Shown: piece after piece, positions 1-11,930 of the stretch | Layout of the letters: each line of letters begins with the position of its first letter | How positions within the stretch are numbered: position 1 is the first letter of the stretch | Source: a virus | Lineage: Duplodnaviria > Heunggongvirae > Uroviricota > Caudoviricetes | DNA: 16,037 nucleotides | Virus record (IMG/VR): IMGVR_UViG_2571042372_000005 | Strand: one strand, 5' to 3' | The notes under the pieces: model-generated | Told to the model about the DNA's origin: nothing | The model's input: only the letters and a program-made list of their open reading frames with translations | Database searches by the model: none | Program-made: the position numbers and the translations under genes

Positions 1-384
1 GAAACGACATTTGTGCTGGATGCTCTGGAGCAGGCGTTATGGGCCCGTCGACCGTCCGGCACGGTCCATCACAGTGATAAAGGTTCTCAGTATGTATCGC
101 TGGCCTACACACAGCGGCTTAAGGAAGCCGGATTACTGGCATCAACAGGAAGTACAGGCGACTCGTATGACAACGCGATGGCGGAGAGCATCAATGGTCT
201 TTACAAAGCGGAGGTAATACACCGTAAGAGCTGGAAAAACCGTGCAGAAGTGGAACTGGCCACACTCACGTGGGTGGACTGGTATAACAATCGACGATTG
301 CTGGAAAGGCTGGGCCATACTCCTCCGGCAGAAGCAGAAAAAGCTTATTATGCTTCCATCGGAAACGATGATCTGGCAGCCTGA
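1..384 (+). CDS. IS629 OrfB transposase (DDE integrase core), 5'-partial at window edge
   Basis: Frame open from base 1 ([31 protein letters not shown]...), same C-terminus as the complete OrfB at 5282..6172; stop at 382..384. Confidence 0.9.
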   Translation, partial: ETTFVLDALEQALWARRPSGTVHHSDKGSQYVSLAYTQRLKEAGLLASTGSTGDSYDNAMAESINGLYKAEVIHRKSWKNRAEVELATLTWVDWYNNRRLLERLGHTPPAEAEKAYYASIGNDDLAA

Positions 385-1692: not shown

Positions 1693-1941
1693 ATGGCAAA
1701 GGGTGTGTCAATTTCTCCAACTACGGTAAGAATCCCTGAATCTTTACGCGAGGCTCTTGCTGTCAGAGCATCAAAAAATGGTCGCTCTGTTAACTCCGAG
1801 ATCGTCATGATTTTGCAAGCCGCGATTGATGAAGATAGGTCGCCAAAGTCAGTTGAGTCATTTGCTCAGCAAGAAGCTGATAAATTCAAAGAGGCGCTAC
1901 TTGAGACGCTAAAGACCATGTATGCTAAGGATGAAAAATAA
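1693..1941 (+). CDS. mnt: Mnt-like ribbon-helix-helix repressor (82 aa)
   Basis: VRIPESLREALAVRASKNGRSVNSEIVMILQAAI matches the Mnt/Arc RHH core (NGRS-NSE); C-terminus ...LKTMYAKDEK resembles P22 Mnt as recalled; divergent from arc. Confidence 0.75.
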   Translation: MAKGVSISPTTVRIPESLREALAVRASKNGRSVNSEIVMILQAAIDEDRSPKSVESFAQQEADKFKEALLETLKTMYAKDEK

Positions 1942-2477
1942 TGCTGCACACAATTCATTTCTTATGCCCTGTTAACACTGCCACTGTTGGGCAACTTCAG
2001 AACCACTGTCTCACCGCATTATCTCAAGGCGCAACTGAATTAAATATCCATATATCAAGTCAGGGAGGGGAAACTGCTGCTGGCTTTACTGCGTATAACT
2101 TTCTTAAGTCACTCCCTGTTACCGTTAGAACTCACAACATAAGCAATGTTGAATCCATAGCTAATATCGTTTTCCTGGCTGGCTCAGAACGTTTCGCAAA
2201 CCCATTATCAAGATTCCTGTTACATCCTCTATTATGGTGCTTTGCCTCCCCAGCCGCCGACCATGCCAGATTGAGAGAGTACGGGAAATGCCTCGATAAC
2301 GATCTTGATCGCTTCGTTGAGACGTTCAATATCGACATCGGAACCCATATTAGGTGGGCATCCCTGATAGCAGACTCGACCATTTTGGATGCTAACAAGG
2401 CTCTTGAGCATGGCATAATTAATTCCATAAAAACTGCAAGGCTGGCATCCAATCAGGCAAACTGGTGGGTTGTTTGA
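1941..2477 (+). CDS. ClpP-fold (S14/S49-like) serine peptidase homologue lacking the ClpP N-terminal region
   Basis: By-eye alignment to E. coli ClpP: IHISSQGGETAAGFTAY vs INSPGGVITAGMSIY; VESIAN Ser aligns with the GQAASMG catalytic Ser; RF-NPLSRFLLHP vs RFCLPNSRVMIHQP keeps the His; a later Asp (ADSTILD) is a candidate third residue. Start ATG overlaps the mnt stop (TAATG). Confidence 0.6.
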   Translation: MLHTIHFLCPVNTATVGQLQNHCLTALSQGATELNIHISSQGGETAAGFTAYNFLKSLPVTVRTHNISNVESIANIVFLAGSERFANPLSRFLLHPLLWCFASPAADHARLREYGKCLDNDLDRFVETFNIDIGTHIRWASLIADSTILDANKALEHGIINSIKTARLASNQANWWVV

Positions 2478-2503
2478 TGGGTAAATCATGATTACTCCTT
2501 ATA

Positions 2504-2527
2504 AAAAACCCACCTGACGGTGGGTTT
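2504..2527. terminator. Intrinsic terminator between convergent genes (possibly bidirectional)
   Basis: AAAAACCCACC-tgac-GGTGGGTTT hairpin; on the - strand it follows the 2526 stop and is followed by a T-run. Confidence 0.7.
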
Positions 2528-2975
2528 AGTCAAACATAGTGTTTCTAAAGTCTCTCGCATACCCTGCTAACACTCTCATTCTATTATGATTGTTAGCAGA
2601 CATGTGAGCTACAGGATGAAAAAGAGCAATCAATGAATACCTGTTCTCATCAAAAAGATTTTGTGCATAAACGAGAGCGGTATTGGATGTTTTATGCCAC
2701 TGCAACTTTTGCGGTGTGCTGATATCTGTGCCATTTTTTATTGGCTCAAATTTATTTTCACCAATTGCTAAATGAAGGTGCATAAGGCCTGCATCTTCAA
2801 TATCAGGAGGTCGATGATAAGAGGTGTCTCTGCCAAAATAGCTGGGCAACGTTCCCGTAGACTTGTAGATGATAAAATCATCTACAAGTGTTTGTTTTAA
2901 ATCAGGAAACTCAACAAAAACCGGGGAGAAAAAATAGTCAAAACTATCCTGATTATATTCCACGGTTACTTGCAT
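2526..2975 (-). CDS. yafO: YafO-family toxin homologue (149 aa)
   Basis: Matches E. coli YafO as recalled: DFIIYKSTGTLPSYFGRD vs DFISYKRDGVLPDIFGRD; HLHLAIGEN vs HIHLANENN; ALVYAQNLFDE...LIALFHPVAHMSANNHNRM vs HLVYCQGAFDE...LIAILKPEPHKLARDNNQM. GAGG SD; starts 8 nt after the upstream stop. Confidence 0.65.
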   Translation of the reverse strand: MQVTVEYNQDSFDYFFSPVFVEFPDLKQTLVDDFIIYKSTGTLPSYFGRDTSYHRPPDIEDAGLMHLHLAIGENKFEPIKNGTDISTPQKLQWHKTSNTALVYAQNLFDENRYSLIALFHPVAHMSANNHNRMRVLAGYARDFRNTMFD

Positions 2976-2983
2976 GTTTTACC

Positions 2984-3550
2984 TCAGTGGAAGTTACCAG
3001 AGTGAAACACACGAGTCCCGTGCTCAGCAAGCGCACGCAAACCAGCCATATCTACGGAACTATCAAAAACAACCGGAACACATGAGCGTTGTTTAATAAG
3101 ACTATTCAGGTTGGTTACGGCAGATCTGGCATCAGCAACAACGATATAGATATCTCTTGCGATCTCTTTAAAATCAGCAGAAGCTTCTTTGAATACCGAT
3201 TTCATTGCCCCTTCAAGTCCTCTCAATTGATGCTCTATCAATCGAGACTTTTCTGGTTCAATGATAGACAACACATTGTCTACATTCTCATCGGTAGCGT
3301 TTGCAAGAACACGATAAGCGTATTTCAGCATTCGAGACAATTCTTTAATCGAAGACACCGCCTCATGAAGCTCATCATTAGCCCGTTCACTGCTGAATGA
3401 GGATTGATGGTAAGCGTGCTGAACGTTATCAGTAACAACCACCTCACAACTGAACGCAGAAGCTTGCTGTAATAGCAAACCTATTGCGACTCCAGCTTTG
3501 GCAGCGTTCAAGCTAAACATTTCATCAATCCCATTAGTCTCATTGCTCAT
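2984..3550 (-). CDS. Hypothetical 188-aa protein encoded immediately upstream of the YafO-like toxin; putative non-canonical antitoxin/partner
   Basis: AAGGAGG SD before the ATG at 3550 (the ORF-track start at 3580 lacks an SD); no RHH/HTH or YafN/Phd-like motif recognisable; same operon as the toxin. Confidence 0.5.
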   Translation of the reverse strand: MSNETNGIDEMFSLNAAKAGVAIGLLLQQASAFSCEVVVTDNVQHAYHQSSFSSERANDELHEAVSSIKELSRMLKYAYRVLANATDENVDNVLSIIEPEKSRLIEHQLRGLEGAMKSVFKEASADFKEIARDIYIVVADARSAVTNLNSLIKQRSCVPVVFDSSVDMAGLRALAEHGTRVFHSGNFH

Positions 3551-3725
3551 ACAAACCTCCTTCTTATCGGAGATTATCAATAGCTATGCATCCATTGAAT
3601 ACACGCTATGCGCAATAAGTTTACGTCACGTGATATCATTATGCAACCACCGTTCTATCACCGACTAACTTTACTCCCACTCCTATACATCATCTGGTAT
3701 CCTGCGCAAAACTAAGGAGGTTGGT

Positions 3726-4076
3726 GTGAATGCTCAGTCTGTCATCATGGTTTTCCTTGGGCTGATTGTCGCAAAACTATATCCAGACTGGTGGAAAGGG
3801 GCATTAGCTACTGTCGCCATCTATTTGCTTTTATCCATCGTTAAGCGATCACTCGCTGAGACCGTAAATCAAGCAAAACGTTTCTCATTTAAGAGTTTAA
3901 TAAACTATGTTACTGGGCTTATTTTTTGCCTTTCAATTCTGATCGCTTCGGCTTTTTTGCCCGTATCAATAGCTAATTTTTTTGGCGCACCATATGAGGT
4001 AGGTTATCTATTCTCTGTTTCCTGTCTTGCCATTGCTCTTCTTTACCTGTGGACGAGATCAAAGAATAAAAATTAG
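3726..4076 (+). CDS. Small integral membrane protein (116 aa, 3-4 predicted TM helices); GTG start
   Basis: AAGGAGG (3714..3720) 5 nt before GTG at 3726; hydrophobic stretches VIMVFLGLIVAKL, ATVAIYLLLSIV, LIFCLSILIASAFLPV, YLFSVSCLAIALLYLW; sits at the P22 sieA-equivalent position. Confidence 0.6.
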   Translation: MNAQSVIMVFLGLIVAKLYPDWWKGALATVAIYLLLSIVKRSLAETVNQAKRFSFKSLINYVTGLIFCLSILIASAFLPVSIANFFGAPYEVGYLFSVSCLAIALLYLWTRSKNKN

Positions 4077-5281: not shown

Positions 5282-6172
5282 TCAGGCTGCCAGATCATCG
5301 TTTCCGATGGAAGCATAATAAGCTTTTTCTGCTTCTGCCGGAGGAGTATGGCCCAGCCTTTCCAGCAATCGTCGATTGTTATACCAGTCCACCCACGTGA
5401 GTGTGGCCAGTTCCACTTCTGCACGGTTTTTCCAGCTCTTACGGTGTATTACCTCCGCTTTGTAAAGACCATTGATGCTCTCCGCCATCGCGTTGTCATA
5501 CGAGTCGCCTGTACTTCCTGTTGATGCCAGTAATCCGGCTTCCTTAAGCCGCTGTGTGTAGGCCAGCGATACATACTGAGAACCTTTATCACTGTGATGG
5601 ACCGTGCCGGACGGTCGACGGGCCCATAACGCCTGCTCCAGTGCATCCAGCACGAATGTCGTTTCCATGGACGATGAGACCCGCCACCCCACGATGTATC
5701 CGGCAAACACATCAATGATGAACGCCACATAGACGAAGCCCCGCCATGTGCTGACGTAAGTAAAATCAGCCACCCACAGCTGGTCAGGTCGTTCTGCCAC
5801 GAACTGACGGTTTACGCGGTCGCCTGCGGCAACGGCTTTCCGGCTGATGGTCGTACGGACCTTTTTACCCCGGAGAACACCGGCAAGTCCCATAACCGCC
5901 ATGAGACGTGCCACAGTGCATCTGGCCACTCTGATACCTTCCCGTAACAACTGACGCCAGACTTTACGCACACCGTATACCTTGTGATTTTCATCGTATA
6001 CGCGCTGTATCTCTTTCTTCAGCCAGTCATCGCGCTGCGCACGGGCACTGCGTTTATCCGGATGATGTCGCTGTTGCTGACAGTGGTAATACGTTGACGG
6101 GGCAATATGCAGTTCGCTGCATAGCGGTCCGACCCCGTACTGCTCACGCAGCTTATCCAGCAGTGGCATCAT
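5282..6172 (-). CDS. IS629 OrfB transposase (DDE integrase core)
   Basis: 296-aa ORF in the -1 frame relative to orfA; IS3-family catalytic-core-like sequence ([10 protein letters not shown]...[15 protein letters not shown]). Confidence 0.9.
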
Positions 6173-6495
6173 TTTTTCCAGAGGCGGTCGAACTCCGCCT
6201 TCGCAAAATAAGCGGAAGCCTGGCGAAGGATATCGTTACTGCGGCGCAGTTCACGATTTTCACGTTCCAGCTCTTTCAGACGCTGACGTTCAGCGGTGGT
6301 GAGCCCTCCATCACCGCCCCCGGTATCCCGCTCATGCTGGCGAACCCAGACACGCAGAGTCTCCGGCGTACAGCCAATCTTTGGAGCAATGGAACAAATT
6401 GTCGCCCATTGTGAGTCATATTCGCTCTGACTTTCCAGAACCATACGGACTGCCCGTTGACGGACTTCGGGGGAAAAACGAGTATTTTTAGTCAT
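6169..6495 (-). CDS. IS629 OrfA (HTH/leucine-zipper transposase N-terminal protein)
   Basis: 108 aa, [21 protein letters not shown]...; ends in the A-run GGAAAAAATGA that overlaps the orfB start, the usual site of -1 frameshifting in this family. Confidence 0.9.
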
Positions 6496-7705: not shown

Positions 7706-8649
7706 GCAATCCCCCTGTCTGCAAACTTCCCTTCCCGAACTCCCGTTAACGAGTCTTCTCTCAGCAGGTAATCAAAATCAGCCGTCCAGCCCGTGTCGTT
7801 GTCTCCGAAGTAAAACGGCTTGGCCTGATGCACAAACGCCCTGACATACGCTCTGAAACCGTCCACGTTTGGCGTTTTCAGTTGCGGGATGATTTTCTTC
7901 AGGCGGCGTTTTCGTTTCTCGTTGACCGCAACAGCGTGTGGCAGTCTGTCACCGACTTCGGTGTTGTAGGCGTTCAGGAAGGATTCGTAGTCGATTCGTT
8001 CTGCCTTGCGACGTTCAGGTTTAACCTGCCCATCGCCTCCCCCATTGGGGGGTAGGGGGGTATTATTTATATTCTTGTTAATACCTTCTTGTTCATGATG
8101 TGCGGTTGTTTGTGCGGCTTCATGTGCGCTTTCATGTGCGGCATGTACGCTGAAAGCCGCGCTATTGCTGGCTTCATCATGTGCGGCATCATGTGCGGTT
8201 GTTTGTGCGGCTTCATGTGCGGGTAAATTGTCCATTTTTTGAGCATATTCATGGTAATTTGTGATGGTTATCACACGGCCTTTTTGCTTCTCTCCATCAA
8301 TGGAGATCATCCCCTCTTTCACAAAAACCTGAAGCATCCGCTCAACCTGATCACGGCTTGCTGGCTTGCCATGTCTGTCGCATAACTGAAGACCTAAATC
8401 AGCTGCTGTCACAACCAGTTGACCGGGTTGCAGATGCCATTCATGACCTTTGAAATTCGCTTTGTATGGCTTTCTGGCGGCATTCAGGAGAAGGTTTTCC
8501 CACAGGGTGCGAAGATAAACATCTTTCGCCCATGACTGTTTCAGAATGCTCCGGTACAACGGAATGTAACCAGTTTTCTGGTTCTCCATCCTGTTGCTCC
8601 TGCGCTCGTGTGCGGCGCTGAAATCGTAGATTTTTGCTGTATTGCTCAT
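7702..8649 (-). CDS. Replication initiator (lambda O / P22 gene-18-like) containing the origin iterons
   Basis: N-terminus [10 protein letters not shown]... recalls lambda O (MTNTAKILNF...); internal reiterated [10 protein letters not shown] peptide corresponds to DNA iterons; translationally coupled to the helicase. Confidence 0.7.
8055..8222. repeat. Putative phage replication origin: two clusters of 12-bp-period iterons (8094..8222) with an adjacent AT-rich stretch (8055..8093)
   Basis: (C/T)ATGTGCGG repeated about 9 times; a 35-bp unit is near-perfectly duplicated (8094..8128 and 8187..8221); the AT-rich stretch lies downstream in the direction of O transcription, as in lambda ori. Confidence 0.6.
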
Positions 8650-8924: not shown

Positions 8925-8946
8925 ATAATTACCTCGTTGGATGTTG

Positions 8947-9240
8947 TTAAAATTCCATTTGTATTTGATCAGAACGCTCGGTTGCCGCCGGGCGTTTTTT
9001 ATTGGTGAGAATCGAAGCAACTTGTCGTGCCAATCGAGCCATGTCGTCGTCGACAACACCCCATTCAAGAACAGCAAGCAGCATTGAGAACTTTGGAATC
9101 CAGTCCCTCTTCCACCTGCTGATCTGCGACTTATCAACGCCCACAGCTTCCGCTGTCTTCTCAGTTCCAAGCATTGCGATTTTGTTAAGCAACGCACTCT
9201 CGATTCTTAGAGCCTCGTTGCGTTTGTTTGCACGAACCAT
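8947..9240 (-). CDS. cII: Transcriptional activator CII (97 aa), lambda-type
   Basis: MVRANKRNEALRIESALLNKIAMLGTEKTAEAVGVDKSQISRWKRDWIPKF...QIQMEF matches lambda CII as recalled, essentially residue for residue; upstream AAGGAAATACTTACATATG context also lambda-like. Confidence 0.9.
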   Translation of the reverse strand: MVRANKRNEALRIESALLNKIAMLGTEKTAEAVGVDKSQISRWKRDWIPKFSMLLAVLEWGVVDDDMARLARQVASILTNKKRPAATERSDQIQMEF

Positions 9241-9297
9241 ATGTAAGTATTTCCTTAACAAATAAGAAGTTATGCGCATCAACTTATGCGCGTTGTA

Positions 9298-9341
9298 TTC
9301 CCGCATTTCGGCGGGAATGAGGACCATGACTGTTAAAGAGC
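9298..9341 (-). promoter_or_regulatory. nutR (boxA + boxB hairpin)
   Basis: On the - strand: boxA-like GCTCTTTAACA (9331..9341), then boxB hairpin TTCCCGC-cgaaat-GCGGGAA (9298..9317); the same elements recur at nutL. Confidence 0.6.
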
Positions 9342-9348
9342 AATTTGC

Positions 9349-9534
9349 TTATGCCGCTTTGCGGTAAGCGCTTTCTTGATACTTCAGGGCGCCAGCTGTA
9401 ACGACTTCCAGTCGATAGGCGTCTTTCTCTGGGATGACTTCCTTCCACTGAGAGACTGCTGCGTCGCTAATGCCTAACGCTTTAGCTACAGCACGCTGGG
9501 TTCCGAAGTGGTCGATAACATCTTTCTTGTACAT
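9349..9534 (-). CDS. cro: Cro-like HTH repressor (61 aa)
   Basis: HTH QRAVAKALGISDAAVSQW; divergent from cI across an operator region; GGAG SD. Confidence 0.8.
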   Translation of the reverse strand: MYKKDVIDHFGTQRAVAKALGISDAAVSQWKEVIPEKDAYRLEVVTAGALKYQESAYRKAA

Positions 9535-9614
9535 AGACTCGCTCCGAAATTAAAGAACACTTAAATTATCCACTAAAGGAATCTTAAGTCAAGTTTATTT
9601 AAGATGTCTTAACT
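9535..9614. promoter_or_regulatory. oR / pR / pRM divergent control region
   Basis: pR on the - strand: -35 TTGACT (9587..9592), 16-17 bp spacer, -10 GATAAT (9565..9570). Recurrent operator-like motifs with a TTAAG/TTAAAT core (ACTTAAATT, ATCTTAAGT, TTTAAGAT). Confidence 0.6.
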
Positions 9615-10265
9615 ATGAAAACTCAATTGATGGGAGAGCGCATTCGCGCTCGGAGAAAAGAACTCAAGATCAGGCAGGCCGCACTTGGAAAGATGGTCGG
9701 CGTGTCTAATGTTGCCATATCTCAGTGGGAACGCTCTGAGACAGAGCCAAATGGAGAGAATCTTCTCGCCCTGGCTAATGCGTTGAAGTGTTCCCCTGAC
9801 TATCTGATGAAAGGAGAGGAAAGTCTTTCAAACATTGCCTATCACAGTAGGCATGATCCAAGAGGGTCATACCCTCTGATTAGCTGGGTGAGCGCAGGAT
9901 GCTGGATGGAAGCTGTAGAACCATATCATAAGCGTGCAATAGATAACTGGTACGATACAACCGTAGACTGTTCAGAAGATTCGTTTTGGTTGGACGTGAA
10001 GGGAGACTCAATGACGGCTCCGGCCGGTCTCAGTATCCCTGAAGGAATGATAATACTCGTCGATCCTGAAGTAGAGCCGCGTAACGGGAAACTGGTAGTT
10101 GCAAAGCTCGAAGGAGAAAACGAGGCAACTTTCAAGAAGTTAGTTATTGATGCAGGCAGGAAGTTTCTAAAACCACTTAACCCACAATATCCGATGATCG
10201 AGATCAACGGAAACTGCAAAATCATCGGCGTAGTTGTCGATGCAAAACTAGCAAACCTTCCATAA
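9615..10265 (+). CDS. cI: CI-type prophage repressor (HTH_XRE N-terminal domain + S24 LexA-like autopeptidase domain)
   Basis: HTH LKIRQAALGKMVGVSNVAISQWE; S24 Ser in GDSM and Lys in KKLV; 216 aa. Confidence 0.9.
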   Translation: MKTQLMGERIRARRKELKIRQAALGKMVGVSNVAISQWERSETEPNGENLLALANALKCSPDYLMKGEESLSNIAYHSRHDPRGSYPLISWVSAGCWMEAVEPYHKRAIDNWYDTTVDCSEDSFWLDVKGDSMTAPAGLSIPEGMIILVDPEVEPRNGKLVVAKLEGENEATFKKLVIDAGRKFLKPLNPQYPMIEINGNCKIIGVVVDAKLANLP

Positions 10266-10290
10266 GGGGGCATTCGCCCCTTTTTTTTTA
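10264..10290 (+). terminator. Intrinsic terminator after cI
   Basis: GGGGC-attc-GCCCC followed by T9. Confidence 0.85.
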
Positions 10291-10299
10291 TTTCCTTTA

Positions 10300-10392
10300 A
10301 AAATCAAAGCCAAACTTAAGTTACGAAAGAAAATTTAAGTTTTCTTCAAAAATGCTCTTGACCATTAATTAAAGAGATCTTAAATTTAAGCC
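10300..10392 (+). promoter_or_regulatory. pL promoter with oL operator repeats
   Basis: -35 TTGACC (10358..10363), 17-bp spacer, -10 TAAATT (10381..10386); operator-like AACTTAAGTT, AATTTAAGTT and ATCTTAAATTTAAG share the core seen at oR. Confidence 0.6.
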
Positions 10393-10432
10393 ATCAGCAG
10401 GACGCTGGAAGCCAAACGGAACAGATTGGCAG

Positions 10433-10476
10433 GCTCTTTAACATTGATGGGATTGTCCCGCCGAAATGCGGGAACC
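10433..10476 (+). promoter_or_regulatory. nutL (boxA + boxB hairpin)
   Basis: boxA-like GCTCTTTAACA (10433..10443), 12-nt spacer, boxB hairpin TCCCGC-cgaaat-GCGGGA (10456..10473), identical to the nutR boxB. Confidence 0.6.
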
Positions 10477-10786
10477 AAAGAGTAGTTGGCTTTGGGGTGA
10501 CGTGAAGTGCAGCTGCACGACGGCAACCGGAAGATAAGCACCCGGCGCGTCACCGCCAAAGTCAATTCCATAGGCGTTATGCAGCCGCCACCATATTCAA
10601 GAAAGCTGCACAAGAGGTAGGAGGATTTATGTGAATGCATAACTTCAAAACCGAGGTTAATTAAATCTCTCGATCCGAGCATCGACCTATTAGGTGGCGA
10701 GATGCTCTTTCTGCCCCTCAGTTCGAGGGGCCAGAAACCACTTTGCAATCACTATCAATTCCAAAGTTGTTTCATCGGAGGTCAAC

Positions 10787-11086
10787 ATGACAGTAGTCAT
10801 TACATATCTGGCTGACGATAACGCCAGAAATCGCCGCAGAGCACGCAGACAGGCTCAACGTGAACAGGCGATGCAAGAACAGCGACTGGCGCGAAAAATT
10901 GCGCTAAAGCTCTCTGGTTGCGTCAGAGCGGATAAAGCAGCATCACTCGGAATCCTTCGCTGCAAGAAGGCAGATGAAGTCGAGAGTAAACAGAATCGTA
11001 TTTACTACCGCAAGCCACGCAGTGAAATGGGTGTGACTTGTGTTGGTCGCCAGAAAATGAAATTAGGCAGCAAACCACTTATTTGA
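10787..11086 (+). CDS. N: N-type transcription antiterminator (99 aa)
   Basis: Arg-rich motif DNARNRRRARRQAQREQ near the N-terminus; C-terminus YYRKPRSEMGVTCVGRQKMKLGSKPLI resembles lambda N (YSKPGERGITCSGRQKIKGKSIPLI); GGAGG SD before the ATG at 10787. Confidence 0.85.
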   Translation: MTVVITYLADDNARNRRRARRQAQREQAMQEQRLARKIALKLSGCVRADKAASLGILRCKKADEVESKQNRIYYRKPRSEMGVTCVGRQKMKLGSKPLI

Positions 11087-11094
11087 GGTGATAT

Positions 11095-11565
11095 ATGACA
11101 AAATCATGGAGCGTACCTTTTCCTGAATCAGAAACTGAACATGATGGAATGCCTGTTTTCTGGAGATTCCAAGCGACAGTTGAAGAAGATGGAATCAAAA
11201 TATTCGCACTTCAATATATAGCTTTTCATCAGACAGAGCATTATGCATGGTTGGTTCCTGCGCATTGGATTGTTAATTTTAAACCAGCACCAAATCAGTG
11301 GTTACAGGAATGGAAACAAAGGAGAAATAGATATGCAATTAAGAAAGTAGCAAAAAATGCAGAAAGATCTTTTGCATTCCCGACGAAGAAACTTGCCATT
11401 GAAAGTTTATTGCGCCGGAAGAAATACCATTTGATGAGAATCAAACAAGATTTGGCTGTTGTATCAACTCTTGTTGATGGGATGAAGAATATTGATACAT
11501 CAACACCAGGTATTGAATATAACTTTGGACACAACCAAGAAACAGAAAACTGGGTGTTTTATTAG
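11095..11565 (+). CDS. Hypothetical protein (156 aa), AT-rich insert between N and the tL terminator
   Basis: GAGGTG SD 5 nt before the ATG; base composition visibly more AT-rich than flanking phage genes; no recognisable motif. Confidence 0.5.
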   Translation: MTKSWSVPFPESETEHDGMPVFWRFQATVEEDGIKIFALQYIAFHQTEHYAWLVPAHWIVNFKPAPNQWLQEWKQRRNRYAIKKVAKNAERSFAFPTKKLAIESLLRRKKYHLMRIKQDLAVVSTLVDGMKNIDTSTPGIEYNFGHNQETENWVFY

Positions 11566-11669
11566 TACGAATAAGCACTGTGTATTCATTCCAACGAGTG
11601 AATACACGGAGCAATGTCGCTCGTAACTAAACAGGAGCCGACTTGTTCTGATTATTGGAAATCTTCTTT

Positions 11670-11695
11670 GCCCTCCAGTGTGAGGGCTTTTTTAT
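11670..11695 (+). terminator. Intrinsic terminator (tL1-like)
   Basis: GCCCTC-cagtgt-GAGGGC followed by TTTTTTAT. Confidence 0.8.
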
Positions 11696-11759
11696 ATGCA
11701 TACCAATAACGCTTCACTCGAGGCGTTTTCGTTATGCAATCAAACAGAAGGAGCATCCT

Positions 11760-11930
11760 ATGCAACAGTTCGCTATTGCAGGGGCGGCATCGGTTCGCCC
11801 TTTCAACCCGATTTTATCGGTACAGCATTCACGAAAAAACATTTTAACCGGAGCAGACTTTAAACAACCAAGAATGAAAAGCTTGCTCGAAAAGCTTTGG
11901 GATATTTTGAAACAACAAGGCCGTCCATGA
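11760..11930 (+). CDS. cIII: CIII-like small protein (56 aa; putative FtsH inhibitor)
   Basis: MQQFAIAG... and ...SLLEKLWDILKQQGRP resemble lambda CIII as recalled (MQYAIAG...LIDILNQPGVP); AGGAG SD. Confidence 0.55.
   Translation: MQQFAIAGAASVRPFNPILSVQHSRKNILTGADFKQPRMKSLLEKLWDILKQQGRP

Follow-up and report, generated by a model that had tools for sequence, protein, structure and literature searches.

The window analysed here, the whole stretch of 16,037 nucleotides in the IMG/VR virus record IMGVR_UViG_2571042372_000005, is a defective P22-like prophage at argW/intS of Escherichia coli of the extraintestinal pathogenic or avian pathogenic type (ExPEC/APEC). Its minus strand carries a pair of genes, one for a 149-residue toxin of the YafO family and, directly upstream of it, one for a 188-residue protein (the partner), so that a known toxin is combined here with a new, exclusive and uncharacterised partner family. 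The pair and its signals are laid out as follows:

2526–2975, minus strand: YafO-family toxin gene, 149 residues (open reading frame (ORF) with translation; PF13957)
2984–3550, minus strand: partner gene, 188 residues (ORF with translation); its product is putatively the cognate antitoxin of the YafO toxin, or its controller
2976–2989, minus strand: coupling junction CAC-TGA-GGTAAAAC-ATG between the two genes, read from the sequence
3551–3562, minus strand: ribosome-binding site of the partner, AAGGAGG at 3556–3562, 5 nt before the ATG at 3550
2500–2527, minus strand: intrinsic terminator of the pair, with a 9-bp stem, GUCA loop and U-run (−15.5 kcal/mol, z −2.46)
3455–3520, minus strand: signal-peptide-like or weakly hydrophobic segment in partner codons 11–32, MFSLNAAK-AGVAIGLLL-QQASA/F (the slash marks the putative cleavage site), followed by a conserved Cys35
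3563–3725, no strand: intergenic region upstream of the pair, which lies divergent from the gene for a 116-residue protein; the promoter or promoters are presumed to be here

Membership of the 149-residue product in the YafO family, which the original prediction had read by eye from the sequence, is borne out by profile searches. Pfam PF13957 (YafO_toxin) matches it with 78.9 bits against a cut-off of 25 (E-value 3.4e-22, profile positions 3–101 of 101), all of its close homologues carry the same domain (16/16), and an end-to-end alignment with YafO of E. coli K-12 (NC_000913) gives 38% identity. Twelve diverse YafO-family sequences share 20 invariant columns, among them D33, F34, Y37, P44, F47, G48, R49, D50, Y53, H66, H68, Q92, Y103, E110 and H124 of the toxin. 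The protein scores 79 bits against the equivalog of K-12 YafO (NF007377), below the cut-off of 153, and has a clade-specific N-terminal insertion of ~12 residues relative to K-12 YafO; together these two observations place it in a separate YafO clade. It belongs to phrog_1651, shows no export signal and is annotated in RefSeq (WP_001198454.1) as ‘type II toxin-antitoxin system YafO family toxin’, while the partner is a ‘hypothetical protein’ there. No structure of a YafO-family protein was found in the PDB by sequence or profile search. YafO-type toxins cleave mRNA on translating ribosomes and thereby stop protein synthesis. Growth inhibition by such translation-dependent cleavage is known for K-12 YafO only (PMC2814082).

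The two genes are tightly joined, with the 8-nt gap and the terminator after the pair both found where the original prediction had put them. The Shine–Dalgarno sequence of the toxin, TGAGGT (2981–2986), is formed from the last His codon of the partner, its stop codon and GG, and ends 5 nt before the toxin ATG. This arrangement is strongly conserved: the gap is exactly 8 nt in 26/26 viral and metagenomic loci and in at least six of the seven GTDB genome loci, the stop codon followed by GG is present in all 17 junctions inspected, and in 9/17 of these the toxin starts with TTG. Phage PhiR40_1 has a gap of 16 nt. A reading of the partner extended to a TTG, at 198 residues, is unneeded since the ATG at 3550 has AAGGAGG 5 nt upstream. 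On the other side the toxin stop codon overlaps the terminator hairpin, which is bidirectional and common to the convergent unit of mnt and a ClpP-like gene; a simple terminator scan missed it by over-extending the stem. The E. coli phage HK639 has an annotated terminator at the equivalent place. A second copy of 41 nt, 100% identical, lies ~1.2 kb downstream of the cassette in locus L013 (6227–6267), and at 81% identity the hairpin follows the toxin in locus L017 (5011–5051), in an otherwise dissimilar context, so it may be a small portable terminator element. The upstream intergenic region contains an 8-bp palindrome, TCACGTGA, at chance level and a 10-nt direct repeat in two copies. We found no third component in the form of a conserved upstream small RNA, operator or small ORF; homology between the DNA of different cassettes ends where the ORFs end. 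One myovirus-like contig from a metagenome (L043), and no other locus, has an 83-residue ParD_antitoxin-family gene (2122–2373) ahead of the pair, at a distance of 128 nt, which may be a lineage-specific third component or simply an unrelated orphan.

The association of the two genes is strict. A homologue of the partner lies directly upstream of a YafO gene in 39/39 other loci examined. These comprise 26/26 loci from IMG/VR, metagenomes, phage HK639 (gp17/gp18) and Pseudomonas phage vB_PaeS-D14L; 7/7 loci in GTDB genomes of Serratia, Pluralibacter, Enterobacter, Buttiauxella, Xenorhabdus, Stutzerimonas and one Enterobacterales metagenome-assembled genome; 3/3 further phages found via the toxin (YMC11/02/R656, PhiR40_1 and the Klebsiella phage-plasmid pJN2-26); and 3/3 of the most divergent partner representatives (P0042, P0040 and P0033). 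The GTDB scan used the narrow peptide pattern PxYFGRD[TA]xY and thus samples this toxin clade, not the whole YafO family. In the three phages found via the toxin the upstream proteins have 180–205 residues and match the partner profile in hhalign at probabilities of 95.8, 99.2 and 86.6%, in the order given. One of them, in Escherichia phage PhiR40_1 (L039, PV340560.1, 222–761), was labelled ‘YafM antitoxin’ by the depositor, a label for which we found no published basis. The name yafM stands in the literature for a transposase associated with repetitive extragenic palindromic (REP) sequences.

The pair occupies quite different slots in different phages: the P22 immI region in the window, a place beside the tape-measure gene among siphovirus tail genes in HK639 and L005, a site among head and tail genes that precede the tape-measure gene in L003, the interval between the Q antiterminator and holin genes in L006, and the vicinity of the integrase in Pseudomonas phage D14L. 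Homology between cassettes at the DNA level is confined to the two ORFs, without extension upstream. From these sequence comparisons the pair is probably an accessory cassette of phages (a ‘moron’) with two genes and ~1.05 kb, self-contained and mobile by horizontal transfer.

What kind of protein is the partner then? The original prediction saw in it no recognisable fold of the Phd (YafN), ribbon-helix-helix or helix-turn-helix type, and this stands: it has no match in Pfam, NCBIfam, PADLOC or the PDB, none of 21 family members (the window protein and 20 relatives) matches Pfam, NCBIfam and PADLOC likewise yielded no consistent match for them, and homology to YafN was ruled out, with hhalign of the partner profile against YafN giving a probability of 0.1%. 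The same Pfam and PDB searches answer the question whether it belongs to a known antitoxin family, with no match. The only signal from PADLOC is a coiled-coil-level match to the ZorA tail (E-value 0.004, 14 bits), and its PHROG, 8416, is of uncharacterised function. The AlphaFold2 (AF2) model is all-helical, with six helices, a predicted local distance difference test (pLDDT) score of 73 overall and ~90 in the core (residues 60–150), and low confidence in a variable linker (residues 36–53). The conserved motifs are GLL[LM]QQ (24–29), QLRGLEG (108–114), A..ARSA..LN.LI.Q (139–154) and, at the C-terminus, L..LA.HG..VF.SG.FH (171–188). The family is rare, with six clusters at 90% identity among 5.8 billion proteins and 23 representatives at 50% identity among 1.84 billion; a tblastn search of 50,697 phage records matched HK639 and D14L only, and we found no paper that names or tests it.

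Evolutionary rates and population data concern both genes. The nonsynonymous substitution rate (dN) of the partner is 2–3 times that of the toxin, and, for comparisons with unsaturated synonymous sites, its ratio to the synonymous rate (dN/dS) is 0.12, so the partner is under purifying selection. An antitoxin that evolves faster than its toxin is the usual pattern in toxin–antitoxin (TA) systems. Among 5,426 complete E. coli genomes, 55 carry the pair at ≥99.5% identity and four a 70%-identical version. In 54 of the 55 the pair is intact, both ORFs being 99.5–100% identical, and in the only broken copy (1/55, strain SF-088) the toxin is frameshifted and the partner intact. The ExPEC strain XM (NZ_CP025328.1) has three places that match the pair region and strain PU-1 (NZ_CP042246.1) has two, so one strain can hold several cassette variants in different prophages.

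The N-terminus of the partner has a property that the original prediction missed and that complicates a simple type II antitoxin reading: it resembles a Sec signal peptide, and in distant members of the family the resemblance is clear. In the window protein the segment is a 17-residue uncharged stretch with a 9-residue Kyte–Doolittle mean of 2.54, a hydrophobic moment of 0.14 and a summed Hessa free energy (dG) of +4.0, and the enterobacterial clade to which it belongs shares an 18-residue n-region, a 9-residue apolar core (AGVAIGLLL), a QQ-[small]-x-A motif and a conserved Cys. The h-region AGVAIGLLL and the ASA/F site fit a signal peptide, but the n-region is acidic here (net −2). Across ~42 family sequences, assessed with hand-made descriptors and inspection by eye, the uncharged stretch has 15–27 residues, the hydrophobic moment is ~0.1, the summed Hessa dG is +1.5 to +7, and the n-region mostly carries a charge of +1 to +3; the putative cleavage site is of the small-x-small type, with no K or R directly behind it. 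Distant members and PhiR40_1 have classic n-h-c plus AxA N-termini and conserved Cys pairs, as judged by eye; examples are MNLSLRHCLAGILSRGVLSVPLFA/AD, ..LAQPGAMA/ETF and MNPFNAITFAALCGPLACPAAMA/QE. In most members the ‘mature’ part contains two cysteines, the fixed Cys35 and a likely mate whose position (123, 105 or 157) varies with the subgroup, and this pairing suggests a disulfide; in the window's own subgroup only Cys35 is conserved. Other kinds of segment were ruled out: a stable transmembrane anchor by the summed Hessa dG, an amphipathic surface helix by the low hydrophobic moment, a lipobox by the S, H, P, Y, C or N that precedes the conserved Cys, and a Tat signal by the occurrence of a twin arginine in only three aligned members (L014, L019 and L030), none of them in the window clade.

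At a rough probability of 55%, we favour the reading in which the pair is a TA-like phage cassette with the partner as cognate neutraliser, acting in abortive infection and/or prophage addiction. The partner is the probable antidote since it always travels with the YafO toxin in phages, and the antitoxin-first order, the coupled and attenuated translation of the toxin, the co-inheritance, the faster evolution of the partner and the decay that hit the toxin only are the reasons why we take it as the neutraliser. In the mechanism that we propose, the downstream gene would encode a YafO-family endoribonuclease, presumably toxic to the cell, that cleaves mRNA on translating ribosomes and halts protein synthesis, while the upstream gene would provide a family-specific helical protein of ~190 residues which neutralises the toxin, probably by direct binding, and so replaces the small Phd-type YafN. 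Translation of the toxin would be coupled to that of the partner and kept below it by the shared Shine–Dalgarno sequence and the often weak TTG start. As long as the prophage is expressed, as we infer it is in the lysogen, the partner would keep the toxin inactive; should the supply of partner fail, which might happen when an infecting phage shuts off the host or when the element is lost, the toxin would be freed and the cell arrested. Abortive infection, a more stable prophage or both would result.

Several observations weigh against this reading. The original prediction of a non-canonical TA or abortive-infection module gains from the co-occurrence across phage types and genera and from the conserved junction, but the defence systems of PADLOC-DB v2.0 do not include the pair, and none of its models matches the toxin. 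The AF2 model of the toxin, with a pLDDT of 52, is too poor to confirm a RelE-like fold, and for that reason it was left out of the fold search. No DNA-binding domain, typical for type II autoregulation, was detected in the partner by family hidden Markov model searches, and the partner is bigger than its toxin and is, in its AF2 model, a folded bundle and not a short disordered antitoxin. No sigma-70-like site scoring at least 9/12 was found between 3563 and 3725, where candidates picked by eye reach only 6–7/12, and with no promoter detected upstream, expression in the lysogen is a presumption of the model. Then there is the likeness of the partner N-terminus to a Sec signal peptide: if the partner were exported, it would be removed from the compartment of the toxin and could not be an ordinary type II antitoxin.

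The last point leads to a different view, in which the partner is a Sec-targeted envelope protein, periplasmic or held by a weak signal anchor of the signal-arrest-release (SAR) type, coupled to a cytoplasmic YafO RNase as effector. The partner could then act in superinfection exclusion or could sense the entry of a phage or the state of the membrane; or else the toxin might be restrained only by the cytoplasmic pool of partner precursor, with export itself supplying the ‘lability’. The classic N-termini of the distant members and PhiR40_1 speak for it, as do the family descriptors, which are closer to those of a signal peptide than to those of a stable transmembrane helix or a buried amphipathic one, and the two-Cys pattern of most members with the disulfide that it suggests; the slots of the cassette also host envelope-acting exclusion genes in related phages, for example P22 sieA (PMC10883804). 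We nevertheless consider it somewhat unlikely. The window subgroup has its acidic n-region and only Cys35 conserved, GLL[LM]QQ is among the best-conserved segments of the enterobacterial clade, which would be unusual for a mere signal peptide, and AF2 packs the N-terminal helix against the bundle with a pLDDT of 73–81. Moreover, the divergent representative P0040 lacks a hydrophobic segment and yet precedes a YafO gene, strict translational coupling is what a stoichiometric intracellular complex predicts, and a literature phrase search found no exported antitoxin for a cytoplasmic toxin. A bolder reading would make the cognate YafO controller itself Sec-targeted, through a cleavable signal peptide or a SAR-like releasable anchor, with export flux or membrane state replacing proteolysis as the source of ‘lability’, so that the pair would be an envelope- or proton-motive-force-sensing abortive-infection cassette in phages of Enterobacterales and Pseudomonas; this we regard as a speculative and rather unlikely proposal.

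It is also conceivable that the pair serves neither addiction nor defence and that the YafO-like RNase regulates host or phage mRNA during lytic growth, with the partner not inhibiting it but acting as its chaperone, activator or specificity factor. The cassette does sit inside a late operon, in the same orientation, in 4/5 contexts, no promoter was found upstream of it, and the partner is large and folded. But the antitoxin-first order, the weak TTG starts and the coupling junction point to a toxin kept limiting against its partner, the pair is kept intact in a prophage stripped of virion and replication genes, the only natural knockout hits the toxin, and the terminator right after the pair together with the long upstream gap in HK639 fits the layout of an autonomous moron, so that a lytic regulator seems quite improbable to us. 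That the pair is non-functional debris of a decaying prophage might be thought from the heavy deletion of the window prophage by two IS3 copies. Comparison across genomes effectively refutes this: both ORFs are preserved in nearly all E. coli carriers, homologues are under purifying selection across genera, and the same pair occurs in the intact prophage of strain S88 and in the plaque-forming phage HK639.

The surroundings of the pair in the window bear on the claim, made in the original prediction, that it occupies the place of the superinfection-exclusion gene sieA of P22. The gene order is ant remnant (minus strand), a 57-residue hypothetical protein (minus), arc (minus), mnt (plus), the ClpP-like gene (plus), the YafO gene (minus), the partner (minus), a hydrophobic protein (plus) and a gp16 remnant (minus), with these two neighbours of the pair:

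1941–2477, plus strand: ClpP-like gene, 178 residues (Pfam CLP_protease, 44 bits; phrog_94, ‘head maturation protease’)
3726–4076, plus strand: gene for a strongly hydrophobic protein of 116 residues (with the RefSeq start at 3747, 3747–4076 and 109 residues)

The pair does fall in the interval between gene 16 and mnt, which is the location of sieA in P22, and so the assignment to the immI/sieA region of a P22-like prophage holds. The true sieA-like position and orientation, however, are those of the 116-residue membrane protein gene, which is transcribed away from the pair and towards the gp16 remnant, and the argument from the slot is weaker than claimed also in that the cassette is found in such different places in other phages. 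For the 116-residue protein we found no match in Pfam or PHROG and no tblastn match in the 50,697 phage records; judged by its sequence and position it is a candidate new superinfection-exclusion protein. The longer start at GTG 3726 is suggested by an AAGGAGG 5 nt ahead of it.

On the other side of the pair, the ClpP-like gene begins at the stop codon of the mnt-like gene of the Arc family (1693–1941) and is convergent on the YafO pair, with the hairpin common to both. Candidates for the Ser, His and Asp residues are present in its product (..VESIAN.., ..LLHPL.. and ..IADST..). We know of no P22-type virion that uses a ClpP-type prohead protease, and we therefore take this gene as another accessory gene of the immI region. 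The cassette contexts in HK639, L003, L005, L006 and Pseudomonas lack it, and it was ruled out as a member of the module.

The prophage itself is 100% identical to the corresponding DNA of strain AH20K059, and its immI region is also present in intact prophages of E. coli S88 and APEC O1. Two copies of an IS3-family element (window positions 1–384 and 5282–6495) bracket large deletions, one from the tailspike gene to the ant C-terminus and the other from the gp16 N-terminus, with all upstream virion genes, to the helicase C-terminus. Most virion genes and some replication genes were lost via these copies, while the accessory genes of the immI region were spared and the pair among them is intact. 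The intact version in S88 (L001) has, outside the window, an acyltransferase gene adjoining intS (7904–8239) and a long tailspike gene (8946–11891); S88 and APEC O1 are K1 ExPEC/APEC strains. Their prophage presumably resembles the K1-specific P22-like phage CUS-3, although no CUS-3 record matched in the phage collection.

These results define a second kind of YafO module, carried by phages and with a partner family exclusive to it. The family is unnamed in Pfam and NCBIfam and is present in prophages of ExPEC/APEC K1-type E. coli, in HK639 and in Pseudomonas and Klebsiella phages. YafO is among the least understood toxins of the RelE superfamily, and its ribosome dependence is still a question in the field. 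If the partner is an antitoxin, several annotations of ‘orphan YafO toxin’ (e.g. PMC10449497) would be resolved and a new antitoxin fold gained. If it is truly exported, a translation-arresting toxin would be linked to the envelope, which has not been described for TA systems and would bear on how prophage cassettes sense superinfection.

The closest known system is yafN-yafO of K-12, in the dinB operon. The two share the toxin family PF13957 at the 38% identity given above, the conserved FGRD, His, Tyr and Glu positions, and the order of partner upstream and then toxin, with a very short gap of 2 nt in K-12 as against 8 nt in the window. They differ in the partner, since YafN has 97 residues whereas ours has 188, is all-helical, lacks a DNA-binding domain and has a signal-peptide-like N-terminus; as far as we found, the type II antitoxins described so far do not have an N-terminus that resembles an export signal. 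They also differ in setting, a fixed SOS-regulated chromosomal locus in K-12 (PMC2814082) in contrast to a phage-borne mobile cassette. Partners other than YafN have been met before. YafO toxins were paired with Phd or with untested guilt-by-association partner sequences (Leplae, 2011; PMC3141249), YafO_toxin had 13 clusters of partners in the SLING survey of E. coli, of which only 8% were known (PMC10790755), and surveys of Pseudomonas aeruginosa prophages list a YafO toxin as an orphan (PMC10449497). The module thus resembles the RelE/ParE toxins with swapped antitoxins (Leplae, 2011; NetFlax, 2023) in having a known toxin fold and an unrelated upstream protein, but the partner family of ~190 residues is neither named, validated nor described in Leplae, SLING or NetFlax, and the main text of NetFlax 2023 does not mention YafO.

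With the superinfection-exclusion proteins P22 SieA and HK97 gp15 the cassette shares similar slots (the interval from gene 16 to mnt in P22-like phages; a site adjoining the tape-measure gene in the HK97-like siphovirus HK639); all are probably accessory genes expressed in the lysogen, and the partner, like them, may face the envelope. HK97 gp15 is an envelope-acting exclusion moron. SieA and gp15 are, however, single integral membrane proteins without an RNase companion, whereas the partner segment is too weak for a stable transmembrane helix; no relation of the partner to either was found by PHROG match or phage tblastn, no direct pairwise alignment with SieA having been made. For the bolder reading with a Sec-targeted controller, and for that reading only, a conceptual parallel exists in the toxin–antitoxin–chaperone (TAC) systems with a SecB-like chaperone, where control of a RelE-superfamily toxin is tied to the export machinery (PMC11980606). 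TAC systems consist of three genes and have a cytoplasmic antitoxin with a C-terminal chaperone-addiction tag, whereas the cassette described here has two genes, without a SecB-like protein, and it is the partner itself that carries the export-like signal.

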